A stretch of DNA of 24,000 nt from Aromatoleum aromaticum EbN1 (lineage in GTDB: Bacteria > Pseudomonadota > Gammaproteobacteria > Burkholderiales > Rhodocyclaceae): the NCBI RefSeq assembly GCF_000025965.1, contig NC_006513.1, positions 3,751,400 through 3,775,399 on the forward strand. The letters are read 5' to 3'. The stretch's first letter is position 1. Each line of letters opens with the position of its first letter. The notes below the pieces were generated by a model. The model was not told the DNA's origin and searched no databases. It saw only the letters and a list, made by a program, of their open reading frames with translations. Below, piece by piece: positions 8,041 to 24,000 of this stretch. A program made the translations under genes and the position numbers.

Positions 8041-8157
8041 TGCGCTTGACGGTGCCGATACGGCCCTGAGGTTGACCACGTGGGGTCGCGTCGATCGCCG
8101 TGTGCCCCATTCTGTGCGCGGCACCATTCTGGTAGCATCATGCAAATCCGTGGCAAC

Positions 8158-8631
8158 TCAAACTGCTCCATGTGCCTCATTCGGCGATGTCGGCCATTCC
8201 CGATACGTGCTCACGCCGGTTTTCAGCTCGGCGGCAACCGCAACAAGAAGGTCACTCAAGTCGTTCGCCCTGAGCGCGCATTCCCAGATCACGAATACCC
8301 GCCAACCCGCTTGCTGCAGCAGAGCGATCTGCCTCCTGTCGCGCTCGACGTTGGCTTTGAATTTTTCGACCCATTTGTGGCCGTTGTCAGATGGGGTATA
8401 AGCCAGCCTGCAGGAGTCGTGCCGGTGCCAGAAGCAGCCGTGGACGAACAAGGCTGCTCGATACTTCGGAAAGACAAGATCGGGGCTGCCGGGCAGATCC
8501 CGACGATGCAGCCTGAAACGCACGCCCAGCTGATGCAAGCCCCGGCGAACCTGAAGCTCAGGCTTGGTATTCTTGCCTCGTATGGAGGCCATGATCTTCG
8601 AGCGCGTAGCGGGATCGACGATATCAGCCAT
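8158..8631 (-). CDS. vsr: Very short patch repair endonuclease
   Basis: The 157-aa product has TRSKIMASIRGKNTKPEL, LPGSPDLVFPKYRAALFVHGCFWHRH and GWRVFVIWECAL, the canonical Vsr blocks. It is adjacent to a C5 methyltransferase. Confidence 0.9.
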   Translation of the reverse strand: MADIVDPATRSKIMASIRGKNTKPELQVRRGLHQLGVRFRLHRRDLPGSPDLVFPKYRAALFVHGCFWHRHDSCRLAYTPSDNGHKWVEKFKANVERDRRQIALLQQAGWRVFVIWECALRANDLSDLLVAVAAELKTGVSTYREWPTSPNEAHGAV

Positions 8632-8646
8632 TCCTGGTAACCTGGC

Positions 8647-10266
8647 TTGATGAAACAGAAAATCTCAGGGCAGGCCAAGCCAGCCAAAGCAATCATCAAA
8701 ATCGTAGACCTTTTTGCAGGCCCCGGGGGCCTCGGCGAGGGCTTCTCTTCTCATTCTTCATTTCAGATTGCCGTCTCGGCCGAGATGGAGTCTTCAGCTC
8801 ACGCTACGCTGCGCCTTCGCGCCTTCTACCGAAATCTGAAACGGATGGGACAAGGCGCCGCAGCGCCTTACTTCGAGCTGTGCAACGGCGAGTATCCCTT
8901 GCCAACGAACAGGAAAGCTCTCCAGCACTGGAACGACCAAACGAGAAAGGCATGGGAAAACGCCTGTGAGGAGGCCCTCCGGCTAACTCTGGGAGAGGAA
9001 GAGAGTAATGCCGAGCTGGACAAAGCCATCAAGGCTAACAAAATTGGCCCTGACCAACCTTGGGTATTGATTGGTGGGCCGCCATGCCAAGCCTACTCAC
9101 TGGTAGGCCGTGCGCGTAACAAAGGCAAGGCTGACTACAAAGCAGAGGATGACCATCGCCACTTCCTCTACAAGGAGTATCTGCGAATAATCGCGGAGAA
9201 CAGGCCGCACGTTTTTGTCATGGAAAACGTCAAGGGGATTCTGTCTTCCAAGGTGGGAGGACAACAAATATTCCACAGCATCCTGAGGGATCTCGCCGGT
9301 TGCGGATACCGGATTCATTCACTGGTGACTGACACCTGCTTTCATCAGGGAGACAATCCTGCTGACGTAGACGCCCGTGACTTCATCGTGCGCGCCGAGC
9401 GGCACGGAGTTCCACAGGCGAGACACCGCGTGATCCTTCTGGGAATTCGTGAGGATGTCTGCAATGCAAAGGGGGCAGGCTGGAAGCTTCCGGTTCTTCA
9501 GGAAGACCCTCCGGTGTCAGTCTTTGAGGCCATTGGCGACTTGCCGCCGCTTCGCAGCCGGATCTCGAGAGGTAAAGATGACGAGAAGCTATGGGCGTTA
9601 CTCCTTGCCAGGCACTGTCGTGAGATGGCGGAACAAGCCGGATTGAAGAAACATGGCTTGTACGGCGTCGCTGAAGTACTGGGCTCGGTTTCAGCCAGAA
9701 CCAGTTTTCTAGCCAATGCAGGTGCAGCATCAAGGCGCTATCAACCTCCCAAGCTTTGCCCTGAGGCACTTTCTGCCTGGTATACGGCCCAAGGAGTGGC
9801 AAGGCAACTGCGTTACTTCATGAACCATGAAGCACGTGGGCACATGGAGAGTGATCTGAGGCGCTACGTCTACGCTGCTGCCTTTGCCGAGGCTACCGGT
9901 GTATCGCCCAAGGGGCACGAGGAGTTTGCCTTAAAGGGCCTTGCACCAGACCACGAGAACTGGGAAAGCGGGAAGTTTGCAGATCGCTTCCGCGTTCAAC
10001 TTAAAAATCGGCCTTCGACCACAATAACCAGCCACATTGCCAAGGACGGGCACTACTTCATTCACTATGATCCGGCGCAATGTCGCAGCCTGACTGTTCG
10101 TGAGGCTGCCCGTCTTCAGACCTTTCCGGATGATTACTTTTTTCAGGGGAACAGGACGCAGCAGTATCACCAGGTCGGGAACGCTGTTCCACCGTTTCTC
10201 GCTGGAAAAATTGCAGTGATTGTGATTGGAATCCTTGATGAACAGGCCTGCGCCCGGGCCGCGTAA
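8647..10266 (+). CDS. dcm: DNA (cytosine-5)-methyltransferase, specificity unknown
   Basis: Motif I DLFAGPGGLGEGF; motif IV GGPPCQAYS; motif VI ENVKGIL; motif VIII RHGVPQARHRVILLG; motif IX REAARLQTFPDDY; motif X YHQVGNAVPPFLA. The start is TTG 8647 or ATG 8650. There is an unusually long (~85 aa) insert between motifs II/III and IV and a long variable region before motif IX. Confidence 0.9.
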   Translation: MMKQKISGQAKPAKAIIKIVDLFAGPGGLGEGFSSHSSFQIAVSAEMESSAHATLRLRAFYRNLKRMGQGAAAPYFELCNGEYPLPTNRKALQHWNDQTRKAWENACEEALRLTLGEEESNAELDKAIKANKIGPDQPWVLIGGPPCQAYSLVGRARNKGKADYKAEDDHRHFLYKEYLRIIAENRPHVFVMENVKGILSSKVGGQQIFHSILRDLAGCGYRIHSLVTDTCFHQGDNPADVDARDFIVRAERHGVPQARHRVILLGIREDVCNAKGAGWKLPVLQEDPPVSVFEAIGDLPPLRSRISRGKDDEKLWALLLARHCREMAEQAGLKKHGLYGVAEVLGSVSARTSFLANAGAASRRYQPPKLCPEALSAWYTAQGVARQLRYFMNHEARGHMESDLRRYVYAAAFAEATGVSPKGHEEFALKGLAPDHENWESGKFADRFRVQLKNRPSTTITSHIAKDGHYFIHYDPAQCRSLTVREAARLQTFPDDYFFQGNRTQQYHQVGNAVPPFLAGKIAVIVIGILDEQACARAA

Positions 10267-10334
10267 ATACTTCGCTTGATTCGTTCGCGCTGCGCGAAAA
10301 ACTCGTTTCTGCCGAAATCAGACACCTCGCCCGT

Positions 10335-10373
10335 TCAACCTGCGCTGGGTGCATGGATGCCGATCTGGTCAGT
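10335..10373 (-). pseudogene. Displaced native 3' end (last 10 codons plus stop, plus the TSD copy) of the AIPR gene, cut off by IS21 insertion
   Basis: Joining 15240.. to ..10367 through one copy of GTCAGT continues the AIPR frame as ...LTD-QIGIHAPSAG-stop (TGA = 10335-10337). Confidence 0.6.
10368..10373. repeat. Left target-site duplication GTCAGT of the outer IS21-family element
   Basis: An identical hexamer at 15240-15245 abuts the other IS end. Confidence 0.8.
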
Positions 10374-10530
10374 TGCGGATTCCGACCCAACGTGACCGCT
10401 GATTCCGAAATAGTGTGACCGGTGAATCCGCGGTCGTGACCGCGGATTCCGATTTGATCGTGACCGATTTCGGCGAGTTGTCGGAATGGGCGGTCACGAT
10501 GTCGGAATCAATGGTCACGATCAAATCGGA
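10374..10530. repeat. Left-end multi-repeat region of the outer IS21 (probable IstA binding sites)
   Basis: GTGACCG occurs at 10392, 10415, 10436 and 10460, with inverted (C)GGTCAC at 10491 and 10513. Perfect 12-bp palindrome arms GAATCCGCGGTC / GACCGCGGATTC at 10424-10435 and 10438-10449. 15-bp inverted repeat GATTTGATCGTGACC (10451-10465) / GGTCACGATCAAATC (10513-10527). Confidence 0.8.
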
Positions 10531-10628
10531 ACGGGTTTGTGAGGCCAAGCGTGGCAACGTCGTTTGTCAGGCCGGCTACCCTCGCGCGCTTTGCGCGGAG
10601 ACCGAGGATGCCGGCGGAGCGGATTGCC

Positions 10629-11821
10629 ATGCACAAGATCAGGGAGCTGTTACGGCTCAAATACGACTGCGCGCTGTCGCATGAGCGCATTGCCCGCGCG
10701 CTGTCGATTTCCAAAGGAGTGGTCGCCAAGTATGTGAAGGCGGCCGAGGAGTGCGGCCGGCCGTGGGCCGAGTTGTCGGCGGCCGACGAGGCCGAGTTGC
10801 GCCGGGTGCTGGGGGTCGCCCGGCGTGGACGTGGCGCGAGCGTCGCGAATGTGCCGCCGGATCTGGCGGCGGTGCATCAGGGGCTCAAGCGAAAGAACGT
10901 CACGCTGGCGCTGCTGTGGGAAGAGTACGTGCAGACGGCCGACGGGCCGAGCTATCAGTACTCGCGCTTTTGCGACCTGTACCGCGCGTTCGCCCGCACG
11001 CTCAAGCGCTCGATGCGCCAGGTGCACCGCGCCGGCGAGAAACTCTTCATCGATTACGCGGGCGACACGGTGCCGATCGTCGACGCCGACACGGGCGAGA
11101 TTTCGCGCGCGCAGATCTTCGTCGCGGTGCTCGGCGCCTCGAGCTATACGTTCGCCTGCGCCACGGCGACGCAGTCGCAGGCCGACTGGCTGGGCTCGCT
11201 CGCCCGGGCGCTGGCCTTCATCGGCGGCGTGCCCGAGCTCGTGGTGCCCGACAATACGCGCTCGCTCGTCGGGCAGGCCGACCGCTACGAGCCGCAACTG
11301 CAGCGCACCACCGCCGAGTTCGCCGCGCACTACGGCGTGGCGATCCTGCCCGCGCGCCCCTACAAGCCGCAGGACAAGGCCAAGGTCGAAGTCGGCGTAC
11401 AGATCGTGCAGCGCTGGATTCTGGCGCGGCTGCGGCATCGACGTTTCTTCTCGCTGGGAGAGTTGAACGAGGCGATCGCCGCGTTACTCGAGCCGCTGAA
11501 CACGCGTGCCTTCCGGCGCCTGCCAGGCTCGCGCCACGAAGCGTTCGAGACGCTCGATCGGCCGGCGCTGCGCCCGTTGCCCGCCACCGCGTTCCAGTTC
11601 GCCCAGTGGAAACGGGCCAAGCCCAATATCGATTACCACGTCGAGTTCGACGGGCATTACTACAGCGTGCCGTATGCGCTCGCCGGCCAAGCGGTGGAGT
11701 TGCGCATCACCGCGAGCAGCATCGAATGCTTTGCCGCGGGCCGTCGCGTCGCGGTGCATGCGAGAAGCCACCGGCCCGGCGTCTACTCCACGCTCACCGA
11801 ACACATGCCCGCATCCCATCA
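10629..11821 (+). pseudogene. istA: IS21-family transposase IstA (outer element), 5' part interrupted by the nested IS
   Basis: MHKIRELLRLKYDCALSHERIARALSISKGVVAKY (HTH). DDE candidates FIDYAGDT, VVPDNTRSLV, KAKVEVGV. The frame breaks at 11821/11822, where the inner IS begins. Confidence 0.85.
11817..11821. repeat. Left target-site duplication CATCA of the inner IS21-family element
   Basis: An identical pentamer at 13917-13921 directly abuts the other inner IS end. Confidence 0.75.
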
Positions 11822-11861
11822 TGTCACTGCCGGATGTAAGTTGATACGGGCTGCCGATTGA

Positions 11862-13771
<1,910 letters not shown>

Positions 13772-13778
13772 GGGCCGC

Positions 13779-13835
13779 GCGACGGAGCGCCCCTGCGGTC
13801 GGGCCTTCGGCCCTCCCTTCGGGGCGCTCCGTCGC
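13779..13835. terminator. Nested GC-rich hairpin after the inner istB (15-bp perfect outer stem enclosing a 5-bp inner stem)
   Basis: GCGACGGAGCGCCCC (13779-13793) is the exact reverse complement of GGGGCGCTCCGTCGC (13821-13835). The inner stem-loop GGGCC-TTC-GGCCC lies at 13801-13813. Confidence 0.4.
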
Positions 13836-13860
13836 ACATGTCAATGGGATAGAGGTGTAT

Positions 13861-13910
13861 CAGTTTTAAATCGGCAACCGCCGGGAAAGCGTGTCAGTTT
13901 TAAATCGGCA
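13861..13910. repeat. Two direct copies of CAGTTTTAAATCGGCA in the right end of the inner IS21
   Basis: Copies at 13861-13876 and 13895-13910. Related inverted copies (GCCGATTGAAAGTTGATAC) occur at the left end. Confidence 0.8.
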
Positions 13911-13916
13911 TTGACA

Positions 13917-13921
13917 CATCA
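13917..13921. repeat. Right target-site duplication CATCA of the inner IS21-family element
   Basis: Matches 11817-11821. Confidence 0.75.
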
Positions 13922-14276
13922 GGCGCATCGCCAGTGGTCGCCCGGCAAACTCATCGCCTGGGGCGCCACCGTCGGCCCGCACACCGAGCAGGTGGTCAGC
14001 CACCAACTCGAACGCATGCCGCACCCCGAGCAGGGCTACCGGGCGTGCCTCGGGCTGATGCGCCTCGGTCGCCAATACGGCAACGAACGGCTCGAAGCCG
14101 CGGCGACCCGCGCCGTCACCCTCGGGGCGATGCGTTACCGCAACGTCGCCTCGATCCTCAAGAGCGGGCTCGACCGCGCACCGCTCCCCACTCCCACTCC
14201 CACTGCCGCTAGCCAAACCGAACTGGCGCTTCCCACCGTGCACGAGAACCTGCGCGGTGCGCGCTACTACCACTGA
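13917..14276 (+). pseudogene. istA: IS21-family transposase IstA (outer element), 3' part
   Basis: Removing 11822..13921 joins ...EHMPASH to QAHRQWSPGKLIAWG... in frame. The pieces are 1193 + 355 nt = 516 codons including the stop, i.e. a 515-aa IstA. The C-terminal block resembles IstA tails. Confidence 0.8.
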
Positions 14277-14298
14277 TTCCACCCACCGGAGAACATCG

Positions 14299-15033
14299 AT
14301 GCTGATGCAACACAGCCTGCAACAACTGCATGCCCTGCGCCTGGAAGGCATGGCGCGCGCCTTCGAGGAGCAGCTCACCCAGCCCGCCATCACCGCGCTC
14401 AGCTTCGAGGAGCGCTTCGCCCAGCTCATCGATCGCGAGATCCTGCTGCGCGACGGCAAACGCATCGACCGGCTGCTCAAGGCAGCCCGCATCAAAGCCG
14501 CTGCAGCCTGCCTGGAGGACGTCGACTACCGCGCCGGGCGCGGGCTCGAGCGCAGCCAGATCGCCGCGCTCGGCACCGGGCAATGGATCCGCCATCACCA
14601 GAACTGCCTCATCACCGGGCCCACCGGCAGCGGCAAGACCTGGCTCGCCTGCGCGCTCGCCAATGCCGCGTGCCGGCAGGGCCTCGCGGCCTATTACGTG
14701 CGTCTGCCGCGGCTCTTCGAAGAGCTGCGCATCGCGCATGCCGACGGCAGCTTCAGCCGACGCCTCATGCAGCTCGCGCGCATGGATCTCATCGTCATCG
14801 ACGATTGGGGCCTGGCCGCGCCGTCGGCGCAGGAGCGAAGCGACCTGCTGGAGCTGCTCGACGACCGCGTCGGCACGCGTTCGACCGTGATCACCAGCCA
14901 GCTGCCGATCGAGCACTGGCACACCTACCTGGGCGACCCGACCTTCGCCGATGCGATCCTCGATCGCGTCGTGCACGCCGCGCACAAGCTCGCCCTCAAG
15001 GGCGAGTCGATGAGAAGAAAGGAAAAGGCATGA
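14299..15033 (+). CDS. istB: IS21-family helper ATPase IstB (outer element)
   Basis: ATG 14299 lies 6 nt after GGAGA. Walker [12 protein letters not shown], Walker B LIVIDDWG, and TSQLPIEHW. Confidence 0.9.
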
Positions 15034-15057
15034 GGCCGTGCGCGCGAGACGCCTTAC

Positions 15058-15108
15058 CCACAGGCGCCCGCCCGCCAGCGTATGAGGCGCGCTGGCGGCC
15101 GCCTGTGG
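15058..15108. terminator. Extended interrupted hairpin after the outer istB (two 9-bp stems)
   Basis: CCACAGGCG (15058-15066) pairs with CGCCTGTGG (15100-15108). Inside it, CCGCCAGCG pairs with CGCTGGCGG around a 9-nt loop. Confidence 0.35.
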
Positions 15109-15193
15109 ATAAGCCTGCGCCGTGCCTCGAATTGACCGTGATCGTGACCGACGCGGTTAGAATCTGAACACCACGCTTCGCGCGCAGACCCCC

Positions 15194-15239
15194 CGGTCAC
15201 GTTCGTCGGTGCAGGCGGTCACGTTCGTCGGAATGCGCA
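15194..15239. repeat. Right-end repeats and terminal IR of the outer IS21
   Basis: CGGTCACGTTCGTCGG occurs twice (15194-15209 and 15216-15231). The terminal ...GTCGGAATGCGCA is the inverted copy of the left end. Confidence 0.8.
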
Positions 15240-17318
15240 GTCAGTCAGGTCGATTGATAGAACTCCCTGCTCTTTCAGCCGTTCGAGAACGGTGATCGCG
15301 TGCTTGGACTGCTTTTCGGTCGGAATTTGACGCGGCAGGGAAGCGCAGACCTTCAGGATCTGCGCTTCCTTCATCGTCAGCTCGCGCGCTGCGTTCCCTT
15401 GCTCCCACACCCTGTGCCAGAAATCCGCCCCGAGCCTCACCGCCAGCGATTGAGCCTCGATTCCAGCCATCTCGCGCTGCATCTCCTTGGCGTCGTGCTC
15501 GTTCTTCTTTGCATTTTCTTTCGACATCAGACAGTGCTCAAAGTCACCGTCATAATCGATTTTGCGAGCCTCAAGCACGCTCCAGCAAGCCTGTTGCTTG
15601 GCCCATTCTGACAGGTTGCGCATGCCCGCAGCGGGCTGCGTAATGACTTTATGAGCTTCTTCTGCCGCCAGCAGCAGGGCTCGAACCAAGGCGTCGGAGA
15701 GCATCTGCCGTTTCGAGATCGTGTCGAGGTCGAGTACTTCATTGGCCCGGTTCGCATCGTGGAAGACCTTTGCCATGGCGTAGGTTACGATGTTGGCGCG
15801 GTAGCCCCCCTCGTACCAGGGTTGTTTTGGAATCTCGGCTTCGAGCTTCCGGAAGATGATGGCCTTCGCGACTAACCTGCGATACCAGAGCTCGTCATAC
15901 TTCGCCTCGTTCTTTGACCACGTCTCACCTATTTCCTTGGCGAACAGCGCGAAGTTCTTCTGCGCACCGCGCGAGACAATGTGGGGCTGCCCGGCCGCCG
16001 AGTTTTCGAACTTGGCCAGATCGGTCTTGCTGAACAGTTGCTCCTTCGGGAACTCAAGATCGAATTTCCTCTGGTCGCTGCCCGTACGTCGGCCACGTTC
16101 GTTGATGTACTGCCCGCGGGCGCGCTCGTAGAACCATTTGCTGTCGTGCCGTTCTCCCTCGCGCGCGGCAAAAATCACGTTGCGCGAAAACTGCTCGATC
16201 CGGATGTGGAAGGGGTGGTTCGAGAAGAAGTCAGCGGCGTTGACCTTGTTCTGGGTGTTCGCATATTCCGAGATCTTCGGCACGATTTCCTCCGAGCGAT
16301 CGGGCGGTACGACCGTCAGCTTCATCTGCACAAAGACGTTTGCCAACTGTTCCCGAGCGGTTCTCAGCGCGGCATGGATCGAGCCTGTTGTCTGTGCGCC
16401 GTTAACGATCTGGAGGTTGCCGATCGACGAGATTGCCAAGCCGGAATCTGTCAGGACGCAATCCACATGCTCGGCCGTTGCCGACAGACCGTTGTTGTAG
16501 GGAAAGAAGAGTTCCGGTTCTTCCTTGATGGTTCTCTGGATACCCTTGTTGGTCTTGGCCCTGGCCTGAAGGAAGGTACGGACATTGGCCTCAAGAAGGC
16601 GGGCGCCCCAGAGATCATAGATTGCGGCCACCAGCTGACCGGGCATGATCAGCAGATAGCTTTCGAGAGCCGCACCAGTCTGCGAAGCTTTGAGCGCTGG
16701 AAGCGGAGCGCCGAAGTCACCCAAGAAATCAATGACCATGTCTTCGCGGGCTTGGCCGGAGCGGTCGAATCGCTCAAACCGGGCCAGATCCCAGACGGAC
16801 CAGGTTACCGGAACGTCATCCAGATCCTGCAGTTTTACGGAGTCGTCGCGGCTGATGTACCGGCGGTTTGATACAAGAATCAGCTTGACCTTGGTGACCT
16901 GCGACCACGTCGCGATGATCAGGTCGGAAATCTGAAATGCAGGGTTCACCTCGTTCAGAGCGTCGCGAAACTCCTCGGTCCGGGCCTTCTTCAGGAAGCG
17001 GATAAGCGGATTGAGGATGGGCGGGACATCGGTCTTGCCAAATGTCAGGAGCTCGTCACTGTCGGCGAAGTCGCAGACGATAAGGCCAAGAACCCCTTCG
17101 CTGTCTCGCGGGTCGCCCGCGTATCCGTCGATCCTGATCCTCTGGGTGCCCCCACCGTTCTCGTAGAAAGCACGGTCGGCCGTTTCGAGTTCGCCCGCCT
17201 CTGTCAGCCGAGCTGTCATCTGGTCGAAGAATGCCTCGACCATCAGCACGCCGCTTGCGTCCGCCTCACGGCGGATGTCCGCCATAAGATTCTGGTGATA
17301 CTCCTGAATCTCGCTCAT
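15219..17318 (-). CDS. AIPR (abortive infection phage resistance) family protein, with a C-terminus altered by IS21 insertion
   Basis: ATG 17318 overlaps the upstream gene stop (ATGA). AIPR-type blocks LQIVNGAQTTGSIHAAL, ISEYANTQNKV and FFSNHPFHIRIE. The last 6 codons (CAFRRT) and the stop at 15219 are encoded by the IS21 right IR. Confidence 0.8.
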   Translation of the reverse strand: MSEIQEYHQNLMADIRREADASGVLMVEAFFDQMTARLTEAGELETADRAFYENGGGTQRIRIDGYAGDPRDSEGVLGLIVCDFADSDELLTFGKTDVPPILNPLIRFLKKARTEEFRDALNEVNPAFQISDLIIATWSQVTKVKLILVSNRRYISRDDSVKLQDLDDVPVTWSVWDLARFERFDRSGQAREDMVIDFLGDFGAPLPALKASQTGAALESYLLIMPGQLVAAIYDLWGARLLEANVRTFLQARAKTNKGIQRTIKEEPELFFPYNNGLSATAEHVDCVLTDSGLAISSIGNLQIVNGAQTTGSIHAALRTAREQLANVFVQMKLTVVPPDRSEEIVPKISEYANTQNKVNAADFFSNHPFHIRIEQFSRNVIFAAREGERHDSKWFYERARGQYINERGRRTGSDQRKFDLEFPKEQLFSKTDLAKFENSAAGQPHIVSRGAQKNFALFAKEIGETWSKNEAKYDELWYRRLVAKAIIFRKLEAEIPKQPWYEGGYRANIVTYAMAKVFHDANRANEVLDLDTISKRQMLSDALVRALLLAAEEAHKVITQPAAGMRNLSEWAKQQACWSVLEARKIDYDGDFEHCLMSKENAKKNEHDAKEMQREMAGIEAQSLAVRLGADFWHRVWEQGNAARELTMKEAQILKVCASLPRQIPTEKQSKHAITVLERLKEQGVLSIDLTDCAFRRT
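15240..15245. repeat. Right target-site duplication GTCAGT of the outer IS21-family element
   Basis: Matches 10368-10373. Confidence 0.8.
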
Positions 17319-18289
17319 GGCTGGTCCTCCTCGACGAGATTCGATCGCACGGCGTTCCAGTCTGTCCTGAAGGGAGTGCAGGCCGACAGCGCGAGTGCAT
17401 AGGTCACCCCCGAAACCCCAAGCGGGACGGGAGCGGTAATCCGGGGAAATCCTTCTGCGACGGAATGAAACTCTGGAGGCGAGACGATCCAGCGCCAAGG
17501 CGAGTAGTCGTGCAGTACATCGTAGCCCGCATCGGCAAGATGCAGGTCCCAGTCCATTATCGCTGATGGCTCCGTTCGTTCGAGAAGCTCTGTCACCTCG
17601 TCCACATACTCCGTCAGTGTCCGGCCATGGGGTGGCTGGACCTTGTCCACAGCGAGTACTCCCAGCCAGAGACGGCGATCCGACACGTCGGCAAGCTGGT
17701 GCTCATTGGCGATCTTCACAAACGGCTTCGAGGCGCCGCGTCTTGCCTTGACCTCGATGCAGCCTGCCTTGAGCTCGAAGTCCTTCGGGGCACCGGAGGG
17801 CCCCGTCCATGCTGCAAGGGCCGGCTTTGCGCCCAGACTGGCTATCAGGAGCTTCAGAACCTCAATTTCACCGATCAGGCCTTTCTGTGCCTCTTCCGCC
17901 AACGCTTCAAGCTTCCCGCCGCGCAGCAGGTAGTGCCAACGGAAGGCGCGCCCGATGGCTCGTTCAAGCGCCTCGGCCTCGGTGCCAGCAAACTCGCCCG
18001 CGGCCATGACGTCGCGGCAGAGAGTATCGAACAGTTCGAGTTGTGCACTGTCCTTGAGGCGTATGTAGAGGATCGGGCCGCCCGGCAGCGTTTGAAAGCG
18101 GATTTCCAAATTCCTGAGCTTGGGCAGATCCGGCACCGGATTCGGAAGGTCCGAAAGCTGAAGGACCAAGGCCACGTCGGTGCGCGGCATGACGGCCCAG
18201 AACCAATTCCAGCGTGCTGTTGCATCTACGCGTCGCGTATCGGTTTTTCCGGCCTCGAGGCCCGACCATGGATTGTCATTCGGAATCAC
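17315..18289 (-). CDS. PD-(D/E)XK motif nuclease-like protein
   Basis: GTG 18289 lies 6 nt after GGAGG and overlaps the Z1 stop by 14 nt. Putative catalytic D-x10-E-x-K in GAPKDFELKAGCIEVKARR. Its position between Z1 and AIPR genes is as in related cassettes. Confidence 0.7.
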   Translation of the reverse strand: MIPNDNPWSGLEAGKTDTRRVDATARWNWFWAVMPRTDVALVLQLSDLPNPVPDLPKLRNLEIRFQTLPGGPILYIRLKDSAQLELFDTLCRDVMAAGEFAGTEAEALERAIGRAFRWHYLLRGGKLEALAEEAQKGLIGEIEVLKLLIASLGAKPALAAWTGPSGAPKDFELKAGCIEVKARRGASKPFVKIANEHQLADVSDRRLWLGVLAVDKVQPPHGRTLTEYVDEVTELLERTEPSAIMDWDLHLADAGYDVLHDYSPWRWIVSPPEFHSVAEGFPRITAPVPLGVSGVTYALALSACTPFRTDWNAVRSNLVEEDQP

Positions 18290-20858
18290 CAAGCGCCTCC
18301 TCTTCGATTTCCTCCTCGCCGAACATCTCGCGCATTCGGATGGTGTTGACGACGTATTCGACGGTGCCTCCGCCAATCTGGCTCGACGGGAAGGACAGGC
18401 CCCATGCGAGTACGCCTTCTACATCTTCGCCAGCCGACCTTGTAGCGTCGAGTTTTGGTTTGACGAGACGCAGGATCAGCAGCGGATGCCTGCCGGAAAC
18501 CTGCCTGTAGATCCTCGGATTGACGGTCTTGGGCAACTTCTTGTCATCTCGCGACAGGCGAAATTTTTCCTTCGCATCAGTTATCTGCTGTTCTTCCAGT
18601 CCCTCACTCTCGTCCTCGGCTGAACCAATCCTGCGGCTTGCACCGCTGAATGCTAGGACGCCACTCTTGGCGAGGTCTGCATCGACCGACAGTTCGTAAG
18701 GAACGATATCCAGCCCCGCAAATGGCAGCGGCTTCATATCCTTGCGCGTGGAACTGGCGATGAAGATGTCCCACTCTGCAAGTTCACTTGCTGCACGTGC
18801 TTCGATGTAATCGTTGATCAACTTCGGGTCCGTCAAGGGATTGACCGGCCGGACGCCAAGCTCGGTACGGTACTCCCGAAGGAAATCCATGATCGAATTC
18901 ACCCTAACACCTTTAAGCAGGTATCCCCTCGGACGCGATACGACTAAAACGCCCGCTTTGACGGCGGCAGCCAGCAGCCCCTCGCCCGCGCGGATGTTGG
19001 CCTCCAGCTGCGGGCTATCCAGAACGATCCGGGTTGTCTCGATCAGGTTTTCGGCGAGCCCCACCTTGACCGGCAGCTCTTTCCCGCTCCCCATCTTGTT
19101 CCGTGCGGTCACGATCAGGGACTCCGGATGGCTGCGAACGGTCAGCCCGAACTGTTCCGGCGTGGCCTTCGCCAGCTCCATGCGCTTCAGCTGGGCCTGC
19201 AGGTCGTCCATCGCCTCATGGATGTGGGCGTACCAGCCCACGCCATCCGCGGGGATCCACACGCGGCACAGATCTTCATAGCCCGGCCGATAGCCGAACC
19301 AGCGCCCCATCTGCATGAGCGTGTCGTACATCATGGAGTTCCGCAGGAAGTAGCTGATCGTCAGCCCTTCCAGTGTCAACCCTCGAGACAGGGAGAAGCC
19401 GCCAACGGCGATGACAGTCACGCCATGTTCGCCACCCTGCTCATAGTCGAGCGGCTGAGACCGCTTCGAGGCATTGACCTCGACGACCCTTGCGGCAACC
19501 AGAACCTCGTGCAGTCGAGCCTGCACCTCAGACCAGCCGGCGCCCTCAGCGTCTGCGTATTCTGCCTCCCAGACCGCATGGAGGGCCGCGATCTCCGGGT
19601 TCTGCAGGAGGGCGGCACGGCCCTTGCCGCCGTCGACCGCAACCGCGTCCCTGATGTGGCTGACGACATCGGCCACCTTGGATCGTAGCCGCCCCTGAAC
19701 ATCCGTGAAGCGCGAGGCATTGACCAGCATTGATGCATGCGACGCCTGCTGGCCCCGTGCATTGCGGATTGCCCGGGCGACGATGAAGGCGCGCACGGCT
19801 CGCACGAGGCTGTCTGGCAGCACATCGACCGGATGGTCGATCTTGTGCTTCATCGGCAGGATGTCCTCGTTGTCGTCGATCAGGCGAACGTGCCGGTCGC
19901 GGGCGTCGAGGAAGACCTTTTGCGCGCCGAAATAATTCGACGGCGCGTCCAGGCCGATAATGAAATGGCGTGGGAAGAGGTCCTGTTTCAGCGCCTCGTC
20001 GTCGGTATCCGGATCGATGAAGATGTTGGCAAAGGGCGTGGCCGTGTAGCCGACATAGCAGCTGCGGTGGAACAGCGAGAGCAGTTCGCGGATCTGGCCG
20101 TTGATACGGGTGACCTCGTCGCGGGAATAGGCGGTGTTGATCGAGGCGTTGTCGGCTTCGTCGTCGATCAGCAGCATCGGCTGGCTCACCATCTGGGTAC
20201 CTTGATGGACTGAATGCTCCTTGAGCCATTCCAGCAGATTCTTCAGTGTGCTGGAATTCTTCTTGATCACCAGCACGACGGGAACATTGTATTGCCCGAT
20301 CTGGCTTGTGTTCGTGGTGGCGGTCGCCTTGTTGAAATCTCGCAGAGTGTTGGTCAGCGAGACCGGAAACTCCCGCTGATCGAACGTGCCGACCCCAATG
20401 ATTTTCTGCCGTTGCGCCTTGTTGGCATGAGCCAGCCGTCCGGTGTCGCGGCCTATGAACCCTTCGTCAATCCGCGCTTGGGTTTGATTGCGCAGATTGT
20501 TGTGGATGCCGGCGATCACTACGATCAGGCGATAGCCAGCGTCGGCAGCCTTGCATATCAAGCCGGTGTAGTTCGCCGTCTTGCCGCTCTGGACGTGCCC
20601 GACGACCATGCCGCGGCGGCTCCACGGAGTCATGTTCTTCGGATCACCGAGGCGGTCCAGCACACGATCAGTCACCTCGTCGGTCGCGTCGATCACCGAT
20701 TTCGGCAGTCCCTTGAGGTTCAGGAGCCTGCGGTACCGGCTCCAGTAGAAATCCCCGATCTCGCCGTTGATCCGCGCATCATGCAGCCACGGACGGAAGT
20801 CCTCGGCATCAACGACGGCGCCGAGGCCCATGCTAATGCCGTACTTCTCTTCGATCAT
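18276..20858 (-). CDS. Z1-domain P-loop NTPase, 5'-truncated by IS insertion (largest remaining ORF)
   Basis: Walker A GHVQSGKTANYTG; Walker B/DEAD-like LLIDDEADNAS; Z1 block YDTLMQMGRWFGYRPGYEDLCRVW. The frame stays open upstream to the IS junction at 20898, and the true N-terminus lies at 22480..22377. Confidence 0.85.
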   Translation of the reverse strand: MIEEKYGISMGLGAVVDAEDFRPWLHDARINGEIGDFYWSRYRRLLNLKGLPKSVIDATDEVTDRVLDRLGDPKNMTPWSRRGMVVGHVQSGKTANYTGLICKAADAGYRLIVVIAGIHNNLRNQTQARIDEGFIGRDTGRLAHANKAQRQKIIGVGTFDQREFPVSLTNTLRDFNKATATTNTSQIGQYNVPVVLVIKKNSSTLKNLLEWLKEHSVHQGTQMVSQPMLLIDDEADNASINTAYSRDEVTRINGQIRELLSLFHRSCYVGYTATPFANIFIDPDTDDEALKQDLFPRHFIIGLDAPSNYFGAQKVFLDARDRHVRLIDDNEDILPMKHKIDHPVDVLPDSLVRAVRAFIVARAIRNARGQQASHASMLVNASRFTDVQGRLRSKVADVVSHIRDAVAVDGGKGRAALLQNPEIAALHAVWEAEYADAEGAGWSEVQARLHEVLVAARVVEVNASKRSQPLDYEQGGEHGVTVIAVGGFSLSRGLTLEGLTISYFLRNSMMYDTLMQMGRWFGYRPGYEDLCRVWIPADGVGWYAHIHEAMDDLQAQLKRMELAKATPEQFGLTVRSHPESLIVTARNKMGSGKELPVKVGLAENLIETTRIVLDSPQLEANIRAGEGLLAAAVKAGVLVVSRPRGYLLKGVRVNSIMDFLREYRTELGVRPVNPLTDPKLINDYIEARAASELAEWDIFIASSTRKDMKPLPFAGLDIVPYELSVDADLAKSGVLAFSGASRRIGSAEDESEGLEEQQITDAKEKFRLSRDDKKLPKTVNPRIYRQVSGRHPLLILRLVKPKLDATRSAGEDVEGVLAWGLSFPSSQIGGGTVEYVVNTIRMREMFGEEEIEEEALGDSE

Positions 20859-20889
20859 ACGCGCAAGTTCCTCGGCATCATCGTCCTCG

Positions 20890-20898
20890 ACCTTTCCT
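20890..20898. repeat. Left target-site duplication ACCTTTCCT of the IS4-family element
   Basis: An identical 9-mer at 22377-22385 abuts the other IS end. Confidence 0.85.
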
Positions 20899-22376
20899 CA
20901 TCTCGTTATACACAACTCCGCACCGCCGGCACGCCGATCTGAATAATCGTTGACCTTCAATGACTTACACGAAGTGCTTGTAAACCCATATAAAAACGCG
21001 TCTACTTTTGCAATTTGGGTGACCTGTTGGCGACGAAGAGCTGGGTGGTGGAGGAGTTTGCGGGGATGGCGCTGGGCGACGAGAGACTGAACAAGCGGGC
21101 GAAGGTGCTGATGGAGCGGTTGTCGGCGAAGCCGACGGCGGGCATTCCGATGGCGTGCCGGGGCTGGGGCGAGACGGTTGGCGCGTACCGCTTCCTGGGC
21201 AACGACGAGGTCGACTGGCAGGCGATCCTGGCGCCGCATTGGGAGCGCACCCGCAGCCGCATGCGTGCCCATCCGGTGGTGTTGTGCCTGCAGGACACGA
21301 CCGAGCTGGACTTCAACGGGCAGGGCATCGCGGGTCTGGGGCGGCTGAACTACGAGGCGCGCCGCGGCATGTACCTGCACCCGACCTATGCGGTGACGCC
21401 CGAGCGCGAACCGCTGGGCGTGCTCGATGCGTGGATGTGGGCGCGCGAGGATGTCGATGAACCAGGCGAGCGCACCAGCATCAAGGAGAGCGCGCGCTGG
21501 CCCGAAGGCTACGAGCGGGTCGCGGAGTTGGCCACGGGGATGGCGACCACCCGCCTGGTGTATGTAGCCGACCGCGAAGCGGATCTGATGGAAATGATGC
21601 TGCGCGCCCAGACGCTGGGCACGCCGGCCGACTGGCTGGTGCGGGCCAAGCACAACCGTTGCTTGCCAGAGGGCGCGAAGCTGTGGTCGCACACCTGCGC
21701 AGGCGAGCCGCTGGGCGAGATCGTGTTCACGATGGGCTCGCGCCACGGCCAGAAGGCGCGCGAGGTGCGCCAGCAACTGTGGGCCCGACGGGTCAGCCTG
21801 CCTGCGGGCAAGGCGGGCACGGTATCGGCCACCTGCATCGTGGCGCGCGAGATCGGCGCGCCGGCCGGCACCAAGCCCGTGGAGTGGCGCCTGCTCACCA
21901 ACCGGGAAGCTGCGACGGCTGCCGACGTGGTCGAGCTGATCGACTGGTATCGGGCGCGCTGGGAGATCGAGACTTTCTTTCACGTGCTCAAGAACGGCTG
22001 TCGGATCGAAGCGCTGCAACTGTCCGCCATCGAGCGCCTGGAGCGCGCGCTGGCGTTGTTCATGGTCGTCGCCTGGCGCATCGCGCATCTGATGCGCACC
22101 GGCCGAACCTGCCCCGAGCTGGATGCCACGCTCTTCTTCGACCCCGACGAGATCCGCGGCGCGTATCTGCTCACGAAGAAGAAACCGCCCGCCACCCCGC
22201 CCACCATCAACGAAGTGCTGCGCCTGATCGCCACCCTCGGCGGCTTCCTGGCGCGCAAGGGCGACGGCGAGCCGGGTGTGAAGACCATCTGGCTGGGCTT
22301 GCAGCGCGTCATGGATGCCGCCGCCACCATACAGGCGCTACGCGATGAGGCGGCCTGAGTTGTGTATAACGACATG
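20899..22376 (+). mobile_element. IS4-family (IS50/Tn5-like) insertion sequence, 1478 bp
   Basis: 20-bp IRs CATCTCGTTATACACAACTC (20899-20918) versus the reverse complement of 22357-22376, CATGTCGTTATACACAACTC (19/20). They share the TTATACACA core of Tn5 ends. 9-bp TSD and a single transposase ORF. Confidence 0.9.
21015..22358 (+). CDS. IS4-family transposase (Tn5 Tnp-like)
   Basis: N-terminal ALGDERLNKRAKVLMERL ... GAYRFLGN matches the Tn5 DNA-binding region. DDE blocks LQDTTELDF and YVADREADL, then DWYRARWEIETFFHVLKNGCRIE (YREK region). The start codon is uncertain: TTG 21015 is the first in-frame candidate. Confidence 0.85.
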   Translation: MGDLLATKSWVVEEFAGMALGDERLNKRAKVLMERLSAKPTAGIPMACRGWGETVGAYRFLGNDEVDWQAILAPHWERTRSRMRAHPVVLCLQDTTELDFNGQGIAGLGRLNYEARRGMYLHPTYAVTPEREPLGVLDAWMWAREDVDEPGERTSIKESARWPEGYERVAELATGMATTRLVYVADREADLMEMMLRAQTLGTPADWLVRAKHNRCLPEGAKLWSHTCAGEPLGEIVFTMGSRHGQKAREVRQQLWARRVSLPAGKAGTVSATCIVAREIGAPAGTKPVEWRLLTNREAATAADVVELIDWYRARWEIETFFHVLKNGCRIEALQLSAIERLERALALFMVVAWRIAHLMRTGRTCPELDATLFFDPDEIRGAYLLTKKKPPATPPTINEVLRLIATLGGFLARKGDGEPGVKTIWLGLQRVMDAAATIQALRDEAA

Positions 22377-22385
22377 ACCTTTCCT
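22377..22385. repeat. Right target-site duplication ACCTTTCCT of the IS4-family element
   Basis: Matches 20890-20898. Confidence 0.85.
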
Positions 22386-22480
22386 GCGAACATCGGCGTG
22401 TTGCGCAATTGCCCGATGATGTCCCGGATCGACTGGGCCGTGTGAGGTCCTTGTTGCGACGCCATATACATCGCTGTCAT
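22377..22480 (-). pseudogene. Detached 5' end (about 35 codons) of the Z1-domain gene
   Basis: ATG 22480 (alternatives 22471 and 22465) lies 26 nt downstream of the GHKL ATPase stop and behind GAGGG. It encodes MTAMYMASQQGPHTAQSIRDIIGQLRNTPMFAGKV, then runs into the IS. Removing the IS and one TSD copy fuses it in frame to EDDDAEELARMIEEKYG... (2718 nt = 906 codons including the stop). Confidence 0.75.
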
Positions 22481-22506
22481 GCCCTCGAGGCTGCTCAGGA
22501 GGGGAG

Positions 22507-24000
22507 TCACTTGTCTTCCTTCGTCTCTATCGTTGCTGCGATGATGCGCTGAGTGTCCTCCCAAGCCGAACGGAAGGGATCGACGTCCTTCATCAGCGAG
22601 ATGATTTCCTTGATGTCTTTCCGAGCCCCCAGGAGGACGGACAGCGTCGCCTGCACGGCCTGGGCCAGCGTGTCCTCATCGATGCGGTCGGGAACAATCT
22701 GCTCGGCTGTGCCGGCCATGTCGGCATGCAGGGCTTCGATGGGTAGCGAAGCACCTACGAGGGCGATACAGTTGAAAAAACCGCGCCGTAGGTCGGGTGG
22801 CAGCCTCTCGGCAAAATCCGAGAATGCGGGATGCCCGATGTTCGGCCGATACCGGATCTGTCCGTCAGCCTGAACGCGATTCCACATAGGCAGCCGCTCG
22901 TGGTCGACAAGCTTCTGCCCGCGCTTGAGATAGGTCCGCTTCGAGCCGTCCTGAATGCGTTCGATCACTTTCCTGAGGCGGTCACGGACGACAGGAGGCA
23001 GCTGGGCGGAGGACTTCTTGACGTCGATCTTCCAGTCGGCGTCCATGCTGTTCGGAATATCGATCCTGACCCGGGAAAGCTTGGTTAGCTCGGACTGTCG
23101 GCAGAGCCCAAACCACGTTCCGTAAAGGATAAGGCGCCTACCTCGGTACAGATAGAACCCCTGCGATTTCAGATGGCCCTCAGGGCCGGCAATATCATCC
23201 CAGTCGGCCTTGCTCATCTGCTTGTGGTGAGGAAGCGTGAAACTCTGGATTTCCACTTCACCGCGGATCAGAGTCAGCTTTTCTTCAGGGTCGGAAATGG
23301 TCGCAGGATTTTTTCGGGCAAAGGGATCGAGTGGCCGAAGCGGACGACCGTTCAATAGGATACGGAGCAACTTCGTATCCTCTGTGAAGCGGTGAAAAAC
23401 CAGACGTAGATGTCGTTCGGTTTCGGCAATTCTCCTGTTGATGATTTCTGCACGCTTGGCAGTGCTGTGCGAAACGCCCCCAGTCAATCGATCGAGCTTT
23501 TGCCACAGAACCAACGTACCCGTAGCGCCAAGCTGGTCCACCCCCGGAATTCCCGTAACGTCATCAGGCAGCTGCACCGCCCATTCGTTCCGCTCCGCAA
23601 CGTCATCGAGATCCCAGACCGCGGCGGAAGTCTTGCCGTCTTTCCGAGACACGACTGTCAGTCGTCGGCATTGCGAGAAACTCGCACTCTTCAAACCAAG
23701 TCCGAACCTTCCGAGGTCGGGCTCATCACGTGTTGCAAGAGGATTCCGGCTCCCCGGGCGCATGGCGGCAATGAGCTCGTCTTCGGCCATCCCTTCGCCG
23801 TCATCCACGATCGCGATCAGGGGTTCGTCGATGCATGCTTCGGTGATGATACGAATCTGCCTTGCACCCGCTGTGACGGAGTTATCGATGATGTCGGATA
23901 TGGCGGTCTCTAGCGAGTATCCAATATCCCTCAGTCCCTCGATCAGAGAAGCTGCATGGGGAGTGGCATCGGCCCGTCTTGAGGTGGTTTTTTGATGCAC
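22507..24000 (-). CDS. GHKL-superfamily (HATPase_c_3, MORC/MutL-like) ATPase, first gene of the operon; 5' end at or beyond the window edge
   Basis: Bergerat-fold motifs AISDIIDNSVTAGA (N box), IVDDGEGM (G1) and GRFGLGLKSASF (G2). The ORF is open to position 24000, where the first codon is GTG, so the true start cannot be fixed. Confidence 0.8.
   Translation of the reverse strand: MHQKTTSRRADATPHAASLIEGLRDIGYSLETAISDIIDNSVTAGARQIRIITEACIDEPLIAIVDDGEGMAEDELIAAMRPGSRNPLATRDEPDLGRFGLGLKSASFSQCRRLTVVSRKDGKTSAAVWDLDDVAERNEWAVQLPDDVTGIPGVDQLGATGTLVLWQKLDRLTGGVSHSTAKRAEIINRRIAETERHLRLVFHRFTEDTKLLRILLNGRPLRPLDPFARKNPATISDPEEKLTLIRGEVEIQSFTLPHHKQMSKADWDDIAGPEGHLKSQGFYLYRGRRLILYGTWFGLCRQSELTKLSRVRIDIPNSMDADWKIDVKKSSAQLPPVVRDRLRKVIERIQDGSKRTYLKRGQKLVDHERLPMWNRVQADGQIRYRPNIGHPAFSDFAERLPPDLRRGFFNCIALVGASLPIEALHADMAGTAEQIVPDRIDEDTLAQAVQATLSVLLGARKDIKEIISLMKDVDPFRSAWEDTQRIIAATIETKEDK

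Follow-up and report, generated by a model that had tools for sequence, protein, structure and literature searches.

The window (the whole 24,000-nt stretch of Aromatoleum aromaticum EbN1 DNA that was analyzed) carries on its minus strand a four-gene operon encoding a GHKL ATPase, a Z1 protein, a DUF4420 PD-(D/E)XK protein and an AIPR protein, in this order, and convergent to a Vsr/C5-methyltransferase gene pair. The GHKL gene (HATPase_c_3, MzaB-like; 22507..24000, minus strand) was intact, its start lying 15–21 nt beyond the end of the window and its TGA overlapping the GTG start of Z1. The second gene, encoding Z1 (an MzaC-like P-loop NTPase), was found in two parts on either side of a complete insertion sequence (IS): a 5′ fragment with the GTG start and codons 1–45 (22376..22510, minus strand), and a 3′ part with codons 43–915 and the stop (18276..20898, minus strand), codons 43–45 being doubled through duplication. 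Downstream of Z1, the DUF4420 (MzaD-like) gene (17315..18289, minus strand) was intact and collinear with an IS-free reference. In the AIPR (MzaE-like) gene, the last of the operon (15219..17318, minus strand), residues 1–692 of 693 were collinear with the reference and the extreme 3′ end abutted an IS21-family insertion. Compared with the proteins of L019, an IS-free metagenome contig described below, the other genes of the cassette were collinear, with no gaps and no stops, and the only lesion in the rest of the cassette was this separate IS21 insertion at the AIPR end.

The four consecutive genes matched the MzaB, MzaC, MzaD and MzaE models in order (PADLOC, NCBIfam), with scores that all remained far below the NCBIfam equivalog cut-offs (322 vs. 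850, 540 vs. 1500, 94 vs. 420, and 312 vs. 1050 bits, respectively). Judged by these matches, the operon genes are Mza relatives and not equivalogs. The cassette shares with the anti-phage system MzaABCDE the domain order of GHKL/MutL-like ATPase, Z1 NTPase, PD-(D/E)XK protein and AIPR protein; in contrast, it is paired with a C5-methyltransferase and Vsr, and no MzaA match was obtained among the neighboring Mrr_cat gene, the methyltransferase, Vsr and the gene upstream in L019. In survey papers, Mza is given only as a known nuclease-type system.

Structure and Classification of the Inserted Element

The element within Z1 measured 1478 bp from outermost to outermost base of its terminal inverted repeats (20899..22376, plus strand), and its transposase gene runs antiparallel to the defence operon. 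The left inverted repeat, CATCTCGTTATACACAACTC (20899..20918, plus strand), and the right one (22357..22376, minus strand; reverse complement CATGTCGTTATACACAACTC), which overlaps the transposase stop codon, were identical at 19 of 20 positions. Both are flanked by perfect copies of a 9-bp target-site duplication, ACCTTTCCT (left copy 20890..20898, right copy 22377..22385); these repeats had been described at the same positions in an earlier, sequence-only reading of this DNA and were confirmed here. On the coding strand the duplication reads AGGAAAGGT and runs from the third base of the A42 codon through G43 and K44 to the second base of V45. One further base also matches (G 20889/G 22376), by coincidence, and is the terminal base of the IS. 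An antisense ORF of 396 aa within the IS (22088–20898) was not accepted as a gene, since the GC content at its three codon positions mirrors that of the transposase frame.

The transposase gene (21015..22358, plus strand; 447 aa, with the TTG start as listed) was recognized by its domains and catalytic residues. Three Pfam domains were present, Tnp_DNA_bind, DDE_Tnp_1 and Dimer_Tnp_Tn5, with scores above the cut-offs for both the N-terminal DNA-binding domain (PF14706, 71 bits) and the C-terminal dimerization domain (PF02281, 111 bits). The protein reached 404 bits against NCBIfam transpos_IS4_3 (cut-off 160), and its best PDB match was the Tn5 transposase 1MUS (E = 4.7e-33, 118 bits, ~360 residues). 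Alignment to Tn5 placed the catalytic residues at D94, D186 and E319, with D94 and D186 corresponding to Tn5 D97 and D188, R210 conserved, and a complete YREK motif (Y312/R315/E319/K326, equivalent to Tn5 Y319/R322/E326/K333).

The IS50 subgroup is defined by the signature Y-(2)-R-(3)-E-(6)-K, a length of 1350–1550 bp and a direct repeat of 8–9 bp (PMC2266710, Table 1), together with the terminal consensus CW------Y---CA-A--W- and a transposase with Tn5-type DNA-binding (N-terminal) and dimerization (C-terminal) domains, and is further characterized by cut-and-paste transposition via a hairpin intermediate and by an inhibitor protein made from an internal start (PMC2266710). Both the length of the element and its 9-bp direct repeat fall within these ranges, and CATCTCGTTATACACAACTC agreed with the consensus at all seven conserved positions (C1, A2, T9, C13, A14, A16, and T19). 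All the published criteria at the sequence level were found in the element, which is accordingly placed here in family IS4, subgroup IS50 (Tn5-like). The sequence-only reading had reached the same assignment from two hallmarks, a 9-bp target duplication and an end containing TTATACACA, both of which are present; it had made the assignment dependent on similarity of the transposase to IS4/IS50, and such similarity was evident in the three Tn5 domains, the transpos_IS4_3 score and the 1MUS match.

The resemblance to IS50/Tn5 thus covers a single transposase with a Tn5 DNA-binding domain, a DDE core and a Tn5 dimerization domain, the DDE, YREK and R210 residues, the 9-bp target duplication, and ends of about 19–20 bp with TTATACACA, common to the Tn5 outside end (PMC2566895). 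Unlike IS50/Tn5, however, the element is a solo IS and no composite transposon, its ends begin with CAT (CTG in Tn5), both ends are outside-end-like with no Dam-regulated inside end, and the transposase is shorter (447 aa vs. 476–477 aa) and only distantly similar to that of Tn5.

Full copies of the element numbered eight in the genome, all of 1478 bp with 0–2 mismatches, and six of them were 100% identical; seven of the eight had their own perfect 9-bp duplication, with six different duplication sequences. This indicated that the element is active, or was so very recently. Relatives of the transposase in Thauera, Pseudothauera and Aromatoleum showed 91–94% amino acid identity and shared ends, most of them with 9-bp duplications. 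These IS50-subgroup relatives (for example L026–L036) resemble the element in their length (1478–1484 bp), CAT(C/T)TCGTTATACACAACT ends and 9-bp duplications, but are other isoforms, a few percent divergent, at other insertion sites.

Start and Interruption of the Z1 Gene

The IS had inserted into codon 45 of Z1, a gene of 915 codons. The third base of this codon (22376) is now the terminal base of the IS, so that the valine is kept by chance. From here the frame of the 5′ fragment continues into the antisense strand of the IS up to a stop at 21982–21980, giving a predicted product of 176 aa (45 from Z1 and 131 from IS antisense). The first usable start in the 3′ part is ATG 20858 (Met56), which opens a residual ORF of 860 aa with the Pfam Z1 domain retained; about 1.1 kb between the stop of the 5′ fragment and Met56 would be untranslated. 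As had been proposed, Walker A (GHVQSGKT, residues 142–149 of the full-length protein) lies within this residual ORF. The 860-aa ORF has been entered as an ordinary protein in a public protein collection (P0001).

The gene starts at GTG 22510, ATG 22480 being the unlikely candidate. This GTG and the GHKL stop share a 4-nt overlap (GTGA, where homologues carry ATGA), the GTG is preceded by AAGGAAG, and the peptide that it opens matched the MTPLLSSLEG start of the homologues; the same 4-nt overlap of Z1 start and GHKL stop was found in the IS-free loci L019 and L020. The sequence-only reading had started the frame at ATG 22480, which indeed lies 26 nt from the GHKL stop (22507–22509), whereas this ATG did not hold as the gene start given the overlapping GTG. 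Deletion of 20899–22385 did join the peptides named on the two sides of the element in a single frame, of 905 aa plus stop if counted from ATG 22480. The break "after codon 35" and the 906 codons proposed with it have to be corrected: since the start is GTG 22510, the insertion falls in codon 45 and the intact frame encodes 915 aa plus stop.

Comparison with Uninterrupted Loci

The cassette was not found in 40 related genomes searched (19 same-genus), where the only match, in one of them, was a fragment of 69% identity, and among these genomes it is strain-specific. For this reason the empty site was taken from distant IS-free homologues, the metagenome contig L019 and the locus L020 from an Accumulibacter genome. 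Contig L019 carries all six genes, arranged as in the window, at 88–90% nucleotide identity, and it aligned to 15243–20898 and 22376–24000 of the window, the two pieces overlapping by 10 nt at the duplication. The joined flanks aligned to both L019 and L020 without indels at the nucleotide level. At the protein level, 115 of the 119 close homologues were collinear with the repaired N-terminus, as expected under the sequence-only reading, which homologues starting near the break would have contradicted; only 4 of the 119 did so, and two of these four represent one lineage that also lacks the GHKL gene. Two homologues, P0017 and P0035, are annotated with starts at the equivalent of Met56, which may be artefacts of start calling. 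Taken together, these comparisons indicated that a Tn5-like element split Z1 and that its removal in silico restores the gene exactly.

The Vsr/Dcm-linked GHKL-Z1-DUF4420-AIPR cassettes of L019 and L020 are like that of the window in their six genes, gene order and GHKL/Z1 stop/start overlap, and differ in having no IS inside the cassette, whereas the window copy has the Tn5-like IS in Z1. Downstream of AIPR, a small DDE_Tnp_1 ORF is found in the L020 and L021 loci and nested IS21 elements in the window copy.

The lineage L022–L025 lacks the GHKL gene and approximately the first 49 codons of Z1, with DUF4420 and AIPR intact. For its Z1, which starts 4–5 codons from the IS site, dN/dS was 0.06, a sign of strong purifying selection; the N-terminal peptide of Z1 is accordingly not always essential. 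AlphaFold2 prediction for P0002, an intact homologue, aligned with 40 close sequences (mean pLDDT 52.7, pTM 0.36) was poor overall and confident only for residues 1–60; within this range, the first 45–50 residues displayed two or three confident predicted helices ahead of the NTPase core.

Discussion

The best overall explanation of the locus, to which we assign a probability of about 85%, is a recent IS50-type insertion in Z1 that probably left the effector arm off or crippled. The IS would have entered by cut-and-paste of Tn5 type, with staggered target cuts duplicating the 9-bp target. Full-length Z1 would then no longer be producible, the native GTG yielding instead the predicted chimera of 45 Z1 and 131 IS-antisense residues, and because of the ~1.1 kb of untranslated RNA ahead of Met56 the expression of Z1, DUF4420 and AIPR would probably be strongly reduced by polarity. 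The insertion leaves the genes for the GHKL ATPase, the methyltransferase and Vsr untouched. On balance, the nuclease/effector arm of this Mza-like system would probably be inactive or impaired, with methylation continuing. The recent date, also favored by the sequence-only reading, gains support from the identical IS copies, and the other five cassette genes, free of frameshifts and stops, are consistent with it. The event is best read as an ordinary knockout. Z1 has likely lost its function, with some doubt left by the GHKL-less lineage, in which purifying selection acts on a Z1 truncated in a similar way.

It is rather unlikely that the system is still alive, with the residual Z1 transcribed (through the IS from the operon promoter, or from a weak promoter at the left end of the IS), translated from Met56 and working with DUF4420 and AIPR while the IS rewires or attenuates the system. 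The residual ORF still carries the Walker A, Walker B-like and Z1 domains, and a Shine-Dalgarno-like GAGGAA stands 9–14 nt upstream of ATG 20858, which would allow its translation. A consensus scan detected no intrinsic terminator in the IS on the operon strand and read-through transcription is therefore possible; a scan for an outward sigma-70-like promoter in the left end of the IS on the same strand, by consensus and at relaxed stringency, found none that was convincing, both results being no evidence either way in a genome of 65% GC. Moreover, the untranslated antisense IS RNA should favor Rho-dependent polarity. The GHKL-less lineage offers a living example of a Z1 starting 4–5 codons from the same point beside intact DUF4420 and AIPR at low dN/dS, but a start at Met56 loses 6–10 residues more than this natural truncation and cuts a predicted helix (47–60) in the confident part of the model. 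The absence of decay in the downstream genes fits a functioning system, yet a very recent knockout predicts it equally. An error of assembly, with an IS copy misplaced into an intact Z1, or a mixed culture, is extremely improbable: short-read assemblies do err at identical multi-copy repeats such as this one, whereas a perfect 9-bp duplication exactly at both junctions points to true transposition and not to a mis-join, and the genome consists of three contigs with a 4.3-Mb chromosome; a mixed population in which the site is empty in some cells is conceivable.

Two further proposals concern what the insertion did for the cell, and both seem less convincing than a simple knockout. Selection for the insertion, loss of the effector arm having relieved self-toxicity or let in foreign DNA, is unlikely. 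It would account for two IS families (the Tn5-like element within Z1, and IS21 next to the end of AIPR) having independently struck the effector operon or its end while the methylation module of methyltransferase and Vsr stayed untouched, and it would suit a cassette that was not found in the 19 same-genus genomes searched and is on this ground a recent acquisition. However, the IS21 insertion need not inactivate anything, since 692 of the 693 AIPR residues remain; an active IS present in eight copies can be expected to land neutrally in a non-essential island; and a single genome allows no statistics. Quite unlikely, too, is the idea that the N-terminal 45–50 residues of Z1 form a separable module coupling it to GHKL, so that the IS would sever the link between effector arm and ATPase regulator and not simply kill the arm. 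If this were true, Z1 without the N-terminal module would work independently of GHKL, as in the GHKL-less lineage.

With the recent knockout as the preferred reading, Z1 in this genome should be annotated as a pseudogene or split gene whose start is the GTG overlapping the GHKL stop; without this correction, predictors of defence systems will miscount. Beyond its bearing on annotation, the finding has little importance. The element itself represents an IS50-type IS that is, or was until very recently, active in this genome. In this strain, nature would have knocked out the effector arm of an Mza-like system linked to a methylase; taken with the GHKL-less, N-terminally truncated lineage, this draws attention to the ~50 N-terminal residues of Z1.

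Structure and Empty Site of the Insertion

The left end of the element interrupting Z1 was CATCTCGTTATACACAACTC (20899-20918), with a near-perfect inverse at 22357-22376; the two ends were identical in 19 of 20 positions, the mismatch being position 4, and ACCTTTCCT abutted each of them on the outer side (20890-20898 and 22377-22385). The inverted and direct repeats described at this break by the sequence-only reading were therefore borne out by the sequence at 20880-20920 and 22350-22390. A repeat search returned a direct repeat of 10 nt and an inverted repeat of 21 nt; both come out one base too long since the last base of the IS happens to match the flank. What fixes the boundaries is that the seven other copies in the genome are all 1478 bp long, with the same first and last bases.

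An IS-free locus in a Logan contig (L019) matched the cassette in all six genes and in their order. By blastn, window positions 15243-20898 matched L019 8584-2935 (88.8% identity), 22376-24000 matched 2944-1320 (90.2%), and 8144-10247 matched 10951-8848 (87.5%). The first two pieces share 10 nt in L019, nine of which are the duplication and the tenth a chance match, the pattern left by a simple insertion. A second IS-free locus, from an Accumulibacter genome (L020), had an identical AGGAAAGGTCGAGGAC at the insertion site, and the joined Z1 flanks aligned with both loci in MAFFT with zero indels. The repair on paper proposed earlier also held: deletion of 20899-22385 gave a single uninterrupted frame, 905 aa when counted from ATG 22480, containing exactly the peptides quoted.

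Transposase and Membership of the IS50 Subgroup

The transposase gene (21015-22358, plus strand, 447 aa) was the sole long ORF in the element with coding-type composition, its third-codon-position GC being 0.89 vs. 0.65 in the antisense shadow ORF. This antisense ORF (396 aa; 20898-22088, minus strand) was rejected as a gene, as its GC by codon position (0.84/0.50/0.65) was that of a shadow of the transposase frame; it is in frame with what remains of Z1, and its stop is a TGA to which the IS end and the duplication both contribute.

The transposase contained the Pfam domains Tnp_DNA_bind, DDE_Tnp_1, and Dimer_Tnp_Tn5, each above its cut-off, and scored 404 bits against NCBIfam transpos_IS4_3 (cut-off 160). 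Its closest solved relative was the Tn5 transposase (1MUS, E = 4.7e-33), in whose alignment the catalytic D97, D188, and E326 of Tn5 corresponded to D94, D186, and E319, the YREK residues Y319, R322, E326, and K333 to Y312, R315, E319, and K326, and R210 to R210 (roles of the Tn5 residues as given in PMC2566895). Four features define the IS50 subgroup (De Palmenaer et al., PMC2266710, Table 1): a size of 1350-1550 bp, ends of the form CW------Y---CA-A--W-, the YREK motif, and direct repeats of 8-9 bp. With its 1478 bp the element falls within this size range; it fits all seven conserved end positions, encodes the YREK motif, and is flanked by 9-bp repeats in Z1; the Tn5 outside end, CTGACTCTTATACACAAGT (PMC2566895), has the TTATACACA core in common with its ends. 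The element at 20899-22376 is thus a typical IS4-family element of the IS50 subgroup.

The genome (a 4.30-Mb chromosome and two replicons of 207 and 224 kb; 65% GC) held eight full copies, six identical and two with a 2-base difference, together with one short diverged remnant. Perfect 9-bp duplications flanked seven of the eight. The copies L002 and L003 had identical flanks and therefore both lie in a duplicated segment, and L006 (G000:C1:40958-42435; flanks tttctacgc and actttgacc) was the copy without a target duplication, which suggests that it later recombined with another IS or that DNA next to it was deleted. Elsewhere, the closest transposases (91-94% identity) occurred in Thauera, Pseudothauera, and Aromatoleum; those about 70% identical formed a large clade found in Massilia, Janthinobacterium, Paraburkholderia, and genera like them. 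The end pattern CA(T/C)nnnnTTATACA(C/T)A was conserved over 60 loci of these relatives, and where both flanks could be read (48 copies), 34 copies had perfect 9-bp duplications. These relatives point to a host that is probably a Thauera-like betaproteobacterium. The relatives collected (L026-L105) formed a large betaproteobacterial clade of Tn5-like elements of 1478-1504 bp with common ends CA(T/C)nnnnTTATACACA. A central T(A/T)A between G-rich and C-rich flanks was seen in many of the 9-bp duplications of this clade, e.g., GGTTTAGGG and GCCTAAGGC.

The Interrupted Cassette

Pfam identified four consecutive minus-strand operon genes: a GHKL ATPase (HATPase_c_3), Z1 (PF10593), DUF4420 (PD-(D/E)XK), and AIPR. 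A C5-methyltransferase gene (8650-10266, plus strand), paired with Vsr (8631-8164, minus strand), was convergent to the operon. The operon genes matched the MzaB, MzaC, MzaD, and MzaE models of PADLOC and NCBIfam, although with scores far below the NCBIfam equivalog cut-offs, and no match to MzaA was found among the tested genes next to the operon. The IS has inserted into a relative of the Mza anti-phage system that is linked to a methylase. Mza was reportedly first described by Gao et al. in 2020. Survey papers class it among nuclease-type defences.

Two IS21-family elements occupied 10248-15242, between the methyltransferase and AIPR genes, with IstA-like genes at 10539-11861 and 11865-12995 and IstB genes at 12992-13771 and 14257-15033; homology to L019 ends at window position 15243, leaving AIPR residues 1-692 of 693. 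Immediately upstream of the GHKL gene lay a gene for an Mrr_cat restriction endonuclease of 344 aa with a topoisomerase-type zinc ribbon (L018:1848-2882, equivalent to window coordinates 24248-25282, past the window end; minus strand); it was absent from the L019 cassette and was followed by class-V aminotransferase genes.

Start Codon of Z1 and Consequences of the Insertion

The insertion had been observed correctly and well in the earlier reading, whereas the Z1 start, placed 26 nt after the GHKL stop, had been mis-assigned. Nearly all full-length homologues start MxPLLSSLEGMTSMYMASQ, ten residues ahead of that Met, and the window encodes V-TPLLSSLEG-MTAMYMASQ from GTG 22510, with AAGGAAG 6-12 nt upstream. 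This GTG overlaps the GHKL stop (22509-22507) as GTGA (22507-22510); in L019 and L020 the called start lies 4 nt before the GHKL end, as ATGA in the alignment. By these N-termini and the 4-nt overlap the start is GTG 22510, and the overlap implies that translation of Z1 would be coupled to that of the GHKL gene, linking the two ATPases. Intact Z1 thus has 915 aa (910-914 aa in homologues); the duplication spans the last base of codon 42 to the second base of codon 45, and the residual ATG 20858 is Met56. The Walker A motif GHVQSGKT (residues 142-149), invariant in 40 homologues, lies downstream of Met56 and, as previously noted, is kept in the residual ORF.

From the native start, 45 Z1 codons are now followed by antisense IS sequence up to a stop at 21982-21980 (product of 176 aa). 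Just upstream of the 3' part, the Z1 frame is closed by the TGA from the IS end and the first duplication base, and no in-frame ATG, GTG, or TTG precedes ATG 20858 in that part. About 1.1 kb of RNA would remain untranslated in the operon direction and should exert polarity on Z1, DUF4420, and AIPR. Consensus scans found no sigma-70-type promoter or intrinsic terminator in either strand of the IS; a relaxed promoter scan of the left end, operon strand, gave a single 8/12 match, which overlaps the ATG and lies beyond the IS.

With the six L019 proteins as tblastn queries, gap-free and stop-free collinearity covered GHKL 2-502/502, DUF4420 1-321/324, AIPR 1-692/693, Dcm 1-530/531, and Vsr 1-156/157. 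Since these genes have not decayed, the interruption of Z1 is recent relative to the time needed for decay, which fits the identical IS copies. Knockout of a defence gene by an IS is common biology.

A Naturally Short Z1 Lineage

The N-terminal peptide of Z1 was absent from 4 of the 119 closest homologues. P0017 and P0035 have the equivalent of Met56 as annotated start (protein annotation only), and P0015 and P0028 represent one lineage from marine metagenomes and Sulfitobacter (L022:2942-5557, L024:5001-7601, and also L023 and L025). These four loci have no GHKL gene and are arranged as Vsr and Dcm, divergent, followed by an unrelated gene, Z1 (866-871 aa), DUF4420, and AIPR; their homology to full-length Z1 starts at codon 49-50, 4-5 codons away from where the IS sits in the window. 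L022 and L024 have the same upstream junction sequence, so a single event underlies both. Between their truncated genes dS was 0.25 and dN 0.015 (dN/dS 0.06); hence selection has maintained Z1 in this form, lacking the first ~49 residues and unaccompanied by GHKL.

The AlphaFold2 model of an intact homologue, P0002, was poor overall (pLDDT 52.7), with residues 1-60 confident (block means 77-90) and helices predicted at 3-18, 25-36, and 47-60; the insertion point maps to the loop leading into the third helix, and Met56 is part of that helix. Taken together, the short lineage and the N-terminal model keep open a working residual ORF in strain EbN1, if expressed, to which we attach a modest probability, and suggest that the N-terminal helices of Z1 may be linked to its GHKL partner.
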